Source: a virus
DNA length: 27,885 nucleotides
Virus genome (UHGV): UHGV-1486778
Strand: one strand, 5' to 3'
Shown: positions 25,359-27,885 of the stretch, piece by piece
Numbering within the stretch: the stretch's first letter is position 1
How the letters are laid out: each line of letters opens with the position of its first letter
Position numbers and translations under genes: made by a program
The notes under the pieces: generated by a model
What the model saw: only the letters and a program-made list of their open reading frames with translations
Database searches by the model: none
What the model was told of the DNA's origin: nothing

Positions 25359-26291
25359 ATGCATCGTATAGACACGAAAACCGCGCAGAAGGATAAGTTC
25401 GGCGCGGGTAAGAACGGTTTTACCCGTGGTAACCCCCAGACCTGCACGCCTGCCACCGATCTGGATGATGACTACTTTGACATGTTGCAGGAGGAGCTTT
25501 GCAGCGTTGTGGAGGCGTCCGGTGCCAGCTTGGATAAGGGGCGGCACGACCAGCTACTTACCGCGCTTCGCGCGCTGCTGTTAAGCCGCAAGAATCCGTT
25601 TGGCGATATCAAATCGGATGGCACGGTGAAAACGGCTCTCGAAAACCTTGGTTTGGGAGATGGCTCGGGGCGTTACAGCAAAACTGTCGTTTTTTCATCG
25701 TCGGGTTCATATACGTGGCCAGCTGACGTAAAACGAATTGACGTTATTCTGACTGCGGCGGGCGGCGGTGGCGGTGGATGTAACGCGGAGAACGCAAATC
25801 AGACATTTTCAGGGGCTGGCGGAGGAGCCGGAGGTACTGTTTTTGCCACTATTTATGCGACAGACAACGATGCCGGGCCAGGGACCTATACAGTGACAAT
25901 TGGTAGCGGTGGTAGTGGTGCCAATGGGCCAGGGTCTGGAAATAATGGCGGTAATAGTTCGTTCATGACATTAACTGCGCTCGGCGGCCAGGGTGGGCAA
26001 TGGGGCGGCGCTACAAATACCGCTGGCGGGCGCGGTGGCTCAGGCTCTGGCGGTTATAAAACAGAACAAGGCGGAGACGGTTCAGACGGACAGGCGGGCC
26101 AGGCGCTATTAGTAGGCAATGGGGCATCGAGCTATTGGGGTGGCGGCGGCCGCGCTGGGCAACTGAGCGGTAATCCTGGAGTTTGCTCTGGCTCCGGCGG
26201 CGGGGGTGCATACGATAATAGCTATTCACACACGTCAGGACGTGGCGGGCACGGAGCTAATGGCGTGCTGGTAATTCGGGAGTACATGTAA
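25359..26291 (+). CDS. Tail fibre protein: conserved N-terminal domain plus glycine-rich C-terminal domain
   Basis: N-terminus [26 protein letters not shown] is typical of Mu/e14/P2-type side tail fibres. The C-terminal roughly 200 aa are dominated by GG/GS runs. Followed by a tail fibre assembly gene. Confidence 0.7.
25636..25661. other. Candidate Hin/Gin/Pin-type crossover-site-like imperfect palindrome inside the tail fibre gene
   Basis: ctctcGAAAACC tt GGTTTgggagat: a 12-bp perfect palindrome with a 2-bp core tt and partly symmetric flanks. Resembles hix/gix sites (AAACC-NN-GGTTT core) and lies at the junction of the conserved N-domain and the variable C-domain. Confidence 0.35.
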
Positions 26292-26696
26292 ATGAATGAT
26301 ATCTATGCAGTTGTTGATAATAACGTTGTTATTAATGTCATTATCTGGGACGGAATTTCTGAATGGAAACCAGAGGCTGGTAATTTAGTTCCGTTAAACG
26401 GCGATGCTGGCATCGGTTGGTCATATTCAGACGGAGTATTTACCGCGCCACCTCCCCCAGAACGCTCTCACAACGCGTTAGTTGCGGAGGCTGAGCTGCA
26501 GAAATCAGCACTACTGACCGTAGCAAATAACACAATAGCACCGCTGCAGGATGCCGTTGATTTGGAAATGGCGACAGACGATGAACAGGCGTTACTGCTG
26601 GCGTGGAAAAAATACAGGGTACTGCTGAACCGTGTTGATACCTCAGCGGCACCCGAAATAGAGTGGCCTACGCAACCGGGGGAGCGGGCCAGTTGA
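26292..26696 (+). CDS. Tail fibre assembly protein (Tfa family)
   Basis: 134 aa with the C-terminal Tfa signature [19 protein letters not shown]. Immediately follows the fibre gene. Confidence 0.75.
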
Positions 26697-26817
26697 TATC
26701 AGGCGCAGCGTCAGCATCAACTGCTGTCACTGCGTCGATGTAGTCGAGTACCGCATTCAGCCGCGTTTTTTCATCATCAGTCAGTTTGCGGCCTGCATTT
26801 CTCCGTTGACATCTTTG
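26668..26817 (-). pseudogene. Relic 3' end of a second, inverted tail fibre assembly gene (tfa')
   Basis: The minus-strand frame encodes ...[38 protein letters not shown]-stop, with no start codon (49 codons, bounded by a stop). It shares the Tfa C-terminal AAP(D/E)I(N/E)WP signature and overlaps the 3' end of the + strand tfa by 29 nt. Confidence 0.55.
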
Positions 26818-27039
26818 TTATATGGTACAACTGCGCAGAGGCCTGTCTCTTCAATTGTGCCAGTTGAATACTACGATACAACGCTCGGCCTTCCTGTTTG
26901 GTGGAACATAACCACATCTACGAGGAAAAGAGCTTACGGTACTAATACTTAGACTTTAAATTTATTTTCGTTTATTAATCATTGAAGTAAAACAAATTAT
27001 TAGGCGAAAATGTAGCGAATTTATGTACTTATACATGTT

Positions 27040-27082
27040 ACCCTGAAGGAAAATTCTTTTAATAAACCTTCTCCTTCAGGGT
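27040..27082. terminator. Hairpin between the convergent tail-fibre and gtr-like transcription units (candidate bidirectional terminator)
   Basis: Inverted repeat accctgaagga (27040-27050) / tccttcagggt (27072-27082) in an AT-rich context, lying 7 nt downstream of the minus-strand gene stop at 27090-27092. Confidence 0.5.
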
Positions 27083-27089
27083 AAAATAA

Positions 27090-27885
27090 TTATTTGACGT
27101 AAATGTGGTTTCTGTATTTGACAAAAATCACATCACACACACTTTCAATATCTTCAGGTTGACCATAAATTTTCTTCACAATATTCAATTGTTCTTTATT
27201 CTCAAGAATAAAGAAATTATTTCCTTTGTTATACCATTCGCTATTTGTAAGCCAGTTGTCTCTTTTAATTTCATTGTTATCAAAAAGTATATTTGCTATT
27301 TTTATGTCTCCATTCACACCAACAGAGTTGGTAAATGCAAAAGGGGCATATCCATAATTCACTTTGTGCTCGTTGATTTTTTCTCTAATACATGATATCT
27401 GATTGTATCTATTATCAGTGGAGCCATTAATATTTATTGTTTTAATTCCTGATATGATGCCCAAAAAAGCTATTAATAAAATAATGCTTTTTTTATTAAA
27501 TTTAGATCTTGACAAAAGAATTACTGCCATAATGAAGACGGGAACAAGGTATCTTATTGTCCATATATTTCTTGGGAGGTTACTACCAATATAAGCAGAT
27601 GTCATGATTAAAATAGACAATGACAAACATATATCAATAACGCTTCTGTTTTTAAAAAGATTTCTGAAAGTGAAGTAAATTAATGCAACAACACCAGCAA
27701 AGCGTATTGCTTTAGATAATAGATGCAGTGATGGTGTTATCTGCTCACCAAATATGTCTGCATTAAAAAACAATAAAGTTCCACTTACTGCGGTATTTAT
27801 ATTAACTAAAATATTGTCATACTCAACAATCTTTACATCTGTTAGTCCTGGCAATGTAAAGCTTCCAAGGTTTAAAAACAAAAAA
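27090..27885 (-). CDS. Polytopic membrane protein, 3' part only (5' end beyond the window edge); candidate serotype-specific O-antigen glucosyltransferase (Gtr type-specific / GtrC-like)
   Basis: Very AT-rich gene convergent with the tail genes. Several TM helices followed by a hydrophilic C-terminal domain of about 130 aa. The frame is still open at the window edge. Its position after the tail fibre genes matches gtr cassettes in SfV-like and CPS-53-like prophages. Confidence 0.45.
   Translation of the reverse strand, partial: FLFLNLGSFTLPGLTDVKIVEYDNILVNINTAVSGTLLFFNADIFGEQITPSLHLLSKAIRFAGVVALIYFTFRNLFKNRSVIDICLSLSILIMTSAYIGSNLPRNIWTIRYLVPVFIMAVILLSRSKFNKKSIILLIAFLGIISGIKTININGSTDNRYNQISCIREKINEHKVNYGYAPFAFTNSVGVNGDIKIANILFDNNEIKRDNWLTNSEWYNKGNNFFILENKEQLNIVKKIYGQPEDIESVCDVIFVKYRNHIYVK

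Follow-up and report, generated by a model that had tools for sequence, protein, structure and literature searches.

Known systems and the locus under study

The E. coli O antigens O17, O44, O73, O77 and O106 share a common Man-Man-Man-GlcNAc backbone and differ by glucose branches for which prophage gtr genes are responsible (PMC7685785, PMC10304059, PMC13188871). Only the O44 transferase has been assigned to a gene, which lies in a prophage beside ybhB, and the enzymes of O73 are unidentified in the literature (PMC7685785, PMC10304059, PMC13188871). The O44 type transferase is called WbbG in literature cited by PMC10304059. Because one O-antigen cluster is shared by all of these serotypes, which differ in prophage-encoded glucose branches only, genome serotyping cannot separate O17, O44, O73, O77 and O106. 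Sequence dissimilarity among type-specific genes is to be expected for Gtr systems (PMC3688519).

The window analysed here is a whole stretch of 27,885 nt from the virus genome UHGV-1486778. Positions 27090-27885 at its right-hand end very probably represent the distal half of the type-specific third gene of a gtrA-gtrB-gtr(type) O-antigen glucosylation operon, carried as a lysogenic-conversion module by an SfV/SfII-like myovirus prophage at argW. This type gene, referred to below as type A, is previously uncharacterised and belongs to an ordinary kind of system, not to a new one. A described relative is found in E. coli 042 (O44:H18), where a sibling prophage that shares the tail fibre assembly gene (tfa) and the remnant of a second one (tfa') holds gtrA-gtrB and a 491-aa gene adjoining ybhB. 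The position of the 042 cassette beside ybhB matches that of the published O44 glucosylation genes (PMC10304059, PMC7685785).

Composition and boundaries of the AT-rich end

GC content was measured in windows of 200 nt. Windows as far as 26899 gave values of 0.50-0.64, the one spanning 26800-26999 gave 0.375, and those from 26900 onwards to the right-hand end gave 0.27-0.31, an overall fall from ~55% to ~29% at 26900. The sharp drop that the original prediction had placed after about 26900 is thus borne out by the profile. The interval given for the AT-rich block, 26818-27885, holds from about 26900 onwards, whereas 26818-26900 lies outside the block: the first 80-120 bases of that interval (26818-26940), which come after the tfa' remnant, are not yet AT-rich. 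For individual genes, GC content was 56.9% in the adjoining tail genes, 30.9% in the full-length type gene and 44.7% in gtrB.

Combining the composition profile with a break in homology, we delimited an AT-rich type-specific module of about 29% GC, to which no strand was assigned, at 26941-27885. The left boundary was set at about 26941, as 55 of the 69 matching E. coli records aligned to query positions 1-242 only, corresponding to 26700-26941 of the window. The right boundary lies beyond the window, ~43 bp inside the 3' end of gtrB (extract L001, about 16891), at the point where 92.9% identity to the K-12 prophage CPS-53 begins. These two sharp homology breakpoints enclose the type gene only.

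The left neighbour of the cassette and the last gene of the tail module is a plus-strand tail fibre assembly gene at 26292-26696 (134 aa; PF02413 Caudo_TAP, E 4.6e-33), the product of which is labelled tail fiber assembly protein in NZ_CP145099.1. Its end is overlapped by tfa' (26668-26796, minus strand), what remains of a second tail fibre assembly gene in the opposite orientation: 42 C-terminal codons, which RefSeq annotates as a pseudogene with its N-terminus missing. The translation of tfa' resembles the C-terminus of K-12 YfdK. The remnant is also kept in sibling prophages, and K-12 CPS-53 possesses a comparable one, the tfaS pseudogene beside yfdK; it is probably a relic of an invertible tail-fibre segment. 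Upstream of tfa, positions 25359-26291 (plus strand) form a single uninterrupted tail-fibre ORF of 310 aa with a glycine-rich domain (PF21722), which in RefSeq is split into a partial 'StfP' pseudogene and a separate glycine-rich-domain CDS.

The cassette beyond the window edge

A megablast search with positions 26700-27885 of the window matched the whole stretch in 14 complete E. coli chromosomes, at 96-100% identity, and in no phage record. Over 16186 aligned bases, NZ_CP145099.1 and the window differed at 6; the gene order in this chromosome is tail fibre, tfa, tfa' remnant and then the cassette on the opposite strand. Past the window edge, the minus-strand order is the 485-aa gene, gtrB, gtrA, intS, the tRNA-Arg(CCT) gene argW and yfdC. 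The genes for GtrB and GtrA, predicted from the window to lie just beyond its edge on the minus strand and to encode about 305 and about 120 aa, were both present there, with products of 305 and 120 aa, respectively.

The gtrB product belongs to GT2 (PF00535, E 4e-30), matched PHROG 841/34335 GtrB with E-values of 1e-165 to 1e-177 and was 87-90% identical to GtrB of P22, SfII and Enterobacter phages. The gtrA product (extract L001, 17762-18124) matched PF04138 (E 2e-13) and PHROG 2224, 'GtrA-like O-antigen conversion' (E 2.7e-69). Tyrosine integrase domains are present in IntS, and the tRNA locus of the cassette is the CPS-53 attachment locus of K-12. An attachment site had been expected after gtrA. 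The argW tRNA gene is indeed reached, but the layout departs from that of SfV and SfII, as intS is placed between gtrA and the tRNA.

In the intergenic region between intS and gtrA (extract L001, 18125-18273), the last ~65 bp are almost identical to phage SfII. The P22-type gtr promoter signature, consisting of four GATC sites and associated with Dam/OxyR, is absent upstream of gtrA, where one GATC is found, as in SfII. As there is one GATC and not four as in P22, no signature of Dam/OxyR phase variation was seen.

The type gene and its protein

The minus-strand ORF in the window, whose stop codon occupies 27090-27092, continues without interruption to the last base, giving 264 codons. It is the 3' part (27090-27885, minus strand) of the 485-aa gtr(type) gene and covers residues 222-485 and the stop codon. 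The start of the type gene overlaps the gtrB stop by one base (extract L001, 16848). The full protein has at least 11 predicted transmembrane (TM) helices. The part inside the window includes a long loop (residues 227-273), the last four TM helices (hydrophobic stretches at about 274-295, 303-321, 328-346 and 353-370) and a hydrophilic C-terminal alpha/beta domain (375-485), in agreement with the original description of a gene cut by the window edge and encoding TM helices followed by a hydrophilic C-terminal domain. The N-terminal, catalytic half of the protein, with residue D36, is located beyond the edge.

A stem-loop follows the type gene on the same strand at 27039-27085, 5 nt past the stop codon, with a 16-bp stem formed by arms at 27039-27054 and 27070-27085. 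The 96-nt fold has an energy of -25.7 kcal/mol (z = -4.4), and none of 200 shuffled sequences was equally stable, confirming the hairpin proposed earlier between the membrane-protein gene and the tail genes. No U-tract follows the stem-loop, and a consensus scan around it revealed no canonical intrinsic terminator. Judging by its position and stability, it possibly ends the operon or stabilises the transcript.

Searches of the 485-aa protein against named families yielded little. No match was obtained in Pfam (E <= 1) or NCBIfam scans, and the only PHROGs match, over residues 285-485, was to a family labelled 'unknown function'. A tblastn search of 50,697 phage records gave no match, and PDB sequence searches with profiles of 3 and of 54 sequences gave no meaningful one. 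No similarity to GtrII, P22 GtrC, GtrC of the Enterobacter phage BUCT554, K-12 YfdI or the CFSAN061770 variant was detected by BLASTP, and hhalign of the family profile with YfdI and P22 GtrC indicated no relation (probability 8% for P22 GtrC). The PF14264 Glucos_trans_II model was matched at 1e-24 to 1e-34 by GtrII, P22 GtrC, BUCT554 GtrC and the CFSAN061770 variant, but not by the type protein. We found no mention of the RefSeq accession of the protein in the literature, and no small toxic YodE-like ORF, as occurs beside K-12 yfdI, at the type gene.

Fold and protein family

An AlphaFold model of the type protein, built on a 54-sequence alignment, had a pLDDT of 93.4 and a pTM of 0.92. The top 16 Foldseek matches for this model were exclusively GT-C glycosyltransferases, among them STT3, PglB, ALG12, AftB, ArnT and DPY19, and the type protein has the GT-C architecture of a multi-TM N-terminal module and a soluble C-terminal domain. 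As modelled, it is a GT-C fold glycosyltransferase. A fold search of BFVD with the same model returned no informative named match.

Four residues were invariant in the alignment (D36, N51, G399 and G462) and four were nearly so (H136, D176, R332 and Y333). D36, which is outside the window, sits just after TM1 (helix 2-30). Loops rich in K/R (196-203, 294-301 and 346-353) mark the cytoplasmic side of the membrane, which would therefore place the loop 227-273 and the C-terminal domain 375-485 in the periplasm, as in ArnT and PglB.

An exhaustive profile search of a library clustered at 50% recovered 1240 representatives at E <= 1e-3, of which 495 reached E <= 1e-10. This exhaustive search of representatives was needed to reveal the family; a word-indexed homolog search had given 3-5 clusters only. 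Despite its size, this GT-C family lacks both a model in Pfam or NCBIfam and a solved structure. An acyltransferase identity, like that of Oac or Salmonella GtrC family II, was also considered and rejected: the type protein had no PF01757 match, and a weak Acyl_transf_3 match was seen in just one of the 54 sequences, a distant family member.

Family members in other genera

Orthologs in Salmonella arizonae (86% identity) and Enterobacter hormaechei (52%) are located directly 3' of gtrA-gtrB. With a dN/dS of 0.17 relative to the Salmonella arizonae ortholog, the type gene is under purifying selection. Nine further loci with homologs of 30-40% identity were inspected for gtr neighbours. Three of them, from Serratia, Enterobacter and a contig labelled Bacillota (30-33% identity), have gtrA-gtrB immediately upstream. 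In three Pseudomonas loci, a gtrB homolog is found about 4 kb downstream and gtrA was not detected. The remaining three, from Lonsdalea, have neither gtrA nor gtrB within 6 kb, and one of these copies is a pseudogene. Linkage to genes supplying Und-P-glucose is thus a feature of the family, though not a universal one.

Association with the O77-group O antigen

Annotation assigns the O-antigen cluster of NZ_CP145099.1 to the O17/O44/O73/O77/O106 family. The wzy gene of this family was found in 94 of 5426 genomes and in all 14 carriers of the type gene (hypergeometric P = 8e-26, or 1e-9 if just five independent lineages are counted). The association is inflated by clonality, as eight of the 14 carriers are 99.9-100% identical over the stretch, and it could partly reflect phage host range instead of acceptor specificity, since the phage may use the O77-group O antigen for adsorption. 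In one carrier (G4/9, NZ_CP060073.1; extract L011, 3648-12155), the O-antigen cluster, including wzx and wzy, contains many frameshifts and an IS3 insertion. Either this is a rough strain that still keeps its gtr genes or the assembly is rich in errors.

Interchangeable type genes

What lies between the tfa' remnant and the gtrB end varies among sibling SfV-like prophages in O77-group genomes. Type A, under study here, was found at argW, in 14 genomes. The O44 type, represented by the 042/SCU-105 protein and termed type B, was found in 12. Type D is a PF14264 GtrII-type gene, present for example in CFSAN061770. A fourth gene, type C, encodes 488 aa, follows a tailspike gene in a P22-like prophage at the lambda attachment site (PS_131_S11) and was found in 25 genomes. 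The type C protein is 32-33% identical to types A and B (32%, E 2e-72, to type A). Because siblings hold at least three different genes in the slot (type A, the O44 type and the GtrII type), the type gene acts as a swappable module.

The 25 type C genomes include M7424, M00057 and M11957, strains named in a study of O77g:H18 HUS. They also include exactly those eight type A carriers that have two copies of gtrB, PS_131_S11 among them; the other six of the 14, for example WP8-S18-ESBL-07 and AST217, have a single gtrB-like gene. NZ_CP145099.1 itself also holds a second gtr cassette, with type C at 3031276-3032742 (extract L029, 1877-3343), in a P22-like prophage at the lambda attachment site.

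None of types A, B and C was carried by K12a, the O17 reference strain, which is part of the collection. With type A missing from both K12a and 042, it is by elimination unlikely to be the determinant of O17 or O44. Type A could specify a branch of O73 or O106, or else a variant as yet unnamed. A more tentative suggestion, which we rate as somewhat short of an even chance, is that type A is one of at least four interchangeable transferases acting on the shared O17/O44/O73/O77/O106 backbone, maybe encoding a glucose branch that has no known gene. If so, the eight carriers of both A and C are predicted to have a doubly glucosylated, O73- or O106-like antigen, and the six that carry type A only would have a single-branch antigen that is neither O17 nor O44, maybe a serologically unnamed variant of the O77 group. 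The repertoire of type genes could then allow genome typing to subdivide 'O77g', to which the recent HUS-associated lineage with its type C gene belongs.

Proposed function and alternative explanations

The original reading of the membrane-protein gene as a type-specific gtr gene is supported by its gtrB and gtrA neighbours and by the GT-C fold. As to the sugar, the acceptor, the linkage and the effect on superinfection, we infer the following. GtrB, as a GT2 enzyme, would convert UDP-glucose into undecaprenyl-phosphate-glucose at the cytoplasmic face of the membrane, and GtrA would bring this lipid-linked glucose to the periplasmic face. The 485-aa GT-C enzyme would then attach the glucose at a single specific site of the O-antigen repeat, probably on the Man-Man-Man-GlcNAc backbone common to O17/O44/O73/O77/O106. 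Such a branch would alter the serotype; the analogy of SfV-type phages suggests that it may also bar superinfecting phages that depend on the unmodified O antigen. Addition of a glucose branch to the O repeat, with serotype conversion, is likely the role of type A, for which the O77-group cluster of all 14 carriers and the homology to the type gene of the 042 cassette provide indirect support. We lean towards the O77-group backbone as its acceptor, with less certainty than for the operon assignment, since the association is confounded by clonality and by the host range of the phage, and since no visible change in O antigen results from some Salmonella GtrC families.

These same points bear on a different explanation, that the protein is a GT-C Gtr transferase with an acceptor other than the O antigen (enterobacterial common antigen, LPS core, capsule or a periplasmic protein) and that the link to O77 merely mirrors phage host range. 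Sibling prophages with the same tail fibre genes also occur in O77-group hosts, so that host range and O type are confounded, and the Salmonella GtrC families in question, II and IV, cause no detectable O-antigen change (PMC3688519). We nevertheless consider this explanation unlikely, given that the homologous type gene of the O44 strain is the accepted source of the O44 glucose branch (PMC7685785, PMC10304059). The presence of at least four alternative type genes in the same slot, specifically in O77-group genomes, also speaks against it and fits diversification on a single acceptor. Moreover, serotype-converting phages typically modify their own receptor.

A glucosyltransferase acting on the O antigen also accounts for the locus better than two readings in which the gene has no such role. 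The very low GC content, the position at the prophage edge and the lack of a named family might suggest a decaying passenger, a moron relic that currently has no function, as might the frameshifted O-antigen cluster of NZ_CP060073.1. Such decay is very improbable in view of the dN/dS of 0.17, the confident, well-packed model, start and stop codons that overlap or abut gtrB as in working operons, and an intact 485-codon CDS annotated in 13 of the 14 carriers (for NZ_CP060073.1, no CDS is listed under the match). Still less probable, to the point of being nearly negligible, is an O-acetyltransferase, O-antigen polymerase or ligase, for which the weak Acyl_transf_3 match of that one distant representative among 54 could be cited. 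An absence of gtrA and gtrB, or full-length homology to an acyltransferase or polymerase, had been named beforehand as grounds for abandoning the gtr reading; both genes exist, and the complete 485-aa product belongs to neither of these two families.

A catalogue of the type genes (type A, its two paralogs and the GtrII-type variant), which replace one another in a single slot of related prophages, would make the long-standing typing gap of the O77 group directly testable. It is relevant to O77-group genoserotyping, to the surveillance of O77g:H18 Shiga-toxin strains and to the prediction of phage host range. Beyond this group, type A points to a large GT-C family (>1,200 representatives at 50% clustering) that is without a curated model.

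Comparison with known prophages, phages and enzymes

Compared with solved GT-C structures (ArnT 5F15, ALG12 9S6T, AglB/PglB and Pmt), the type protein shows an identity of only 9-12% and has no PDB match at the sequence level. Its donor and acceptor are presumed to be different from those of the solved enzymes.

An SfV-like or CPS-53-like prophage had been proposed for this DNA, and likeness to both was found. The head and tail (morphogenesis) module, at about 5.3-23.7 kb of the window, is 97% identical to those of the Shigella phages SfII, SfI, SfIV and SfV, whereas the tail fibre genes diverge beyond 23.7 kb. The locus shares with SfII and SfV the operon architecture, the convergent position after the tail fibre genes and a GtrB of 87% identity. 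It differs from them in that the attachment site there is between int and gtrA, while here, as in CPS-53, the integrase is between gtrA and the tRNA, and from SfII in that the type gene shows no sequence relationship to GtrII (PF14264).

K-12 CPS-53 (argW-intS-yfdG-yfdH-yfdI) uses the same attachment site and likewise has tail-fibre remnants past its cassette. The DNA of yfdC, argW, intS, gtrA and gtrB is 92.9% identical between the two up to ~43 bp before the gtrB end. In contrast, the third gene of CPS-53 encodes YfdI (443 aa), which has no similarity to the type protein by BLASTP or hhalign, and the head and tail module of the prophage described here is still complete-looking.

The O44 type transferase of E. 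coli 042 belongs to the same family as the type protein, with 31% identity over the full length (E 3e-76). The 042 cassette is beside ybhB, at the lambda attachment site, whereas the one described here is at argW and is accompanied by a CPS-53-type integrase. With an identity of only 31% to the 042 protein, type A represents a different allele or paralog, and its gene is lacking from strain 042.
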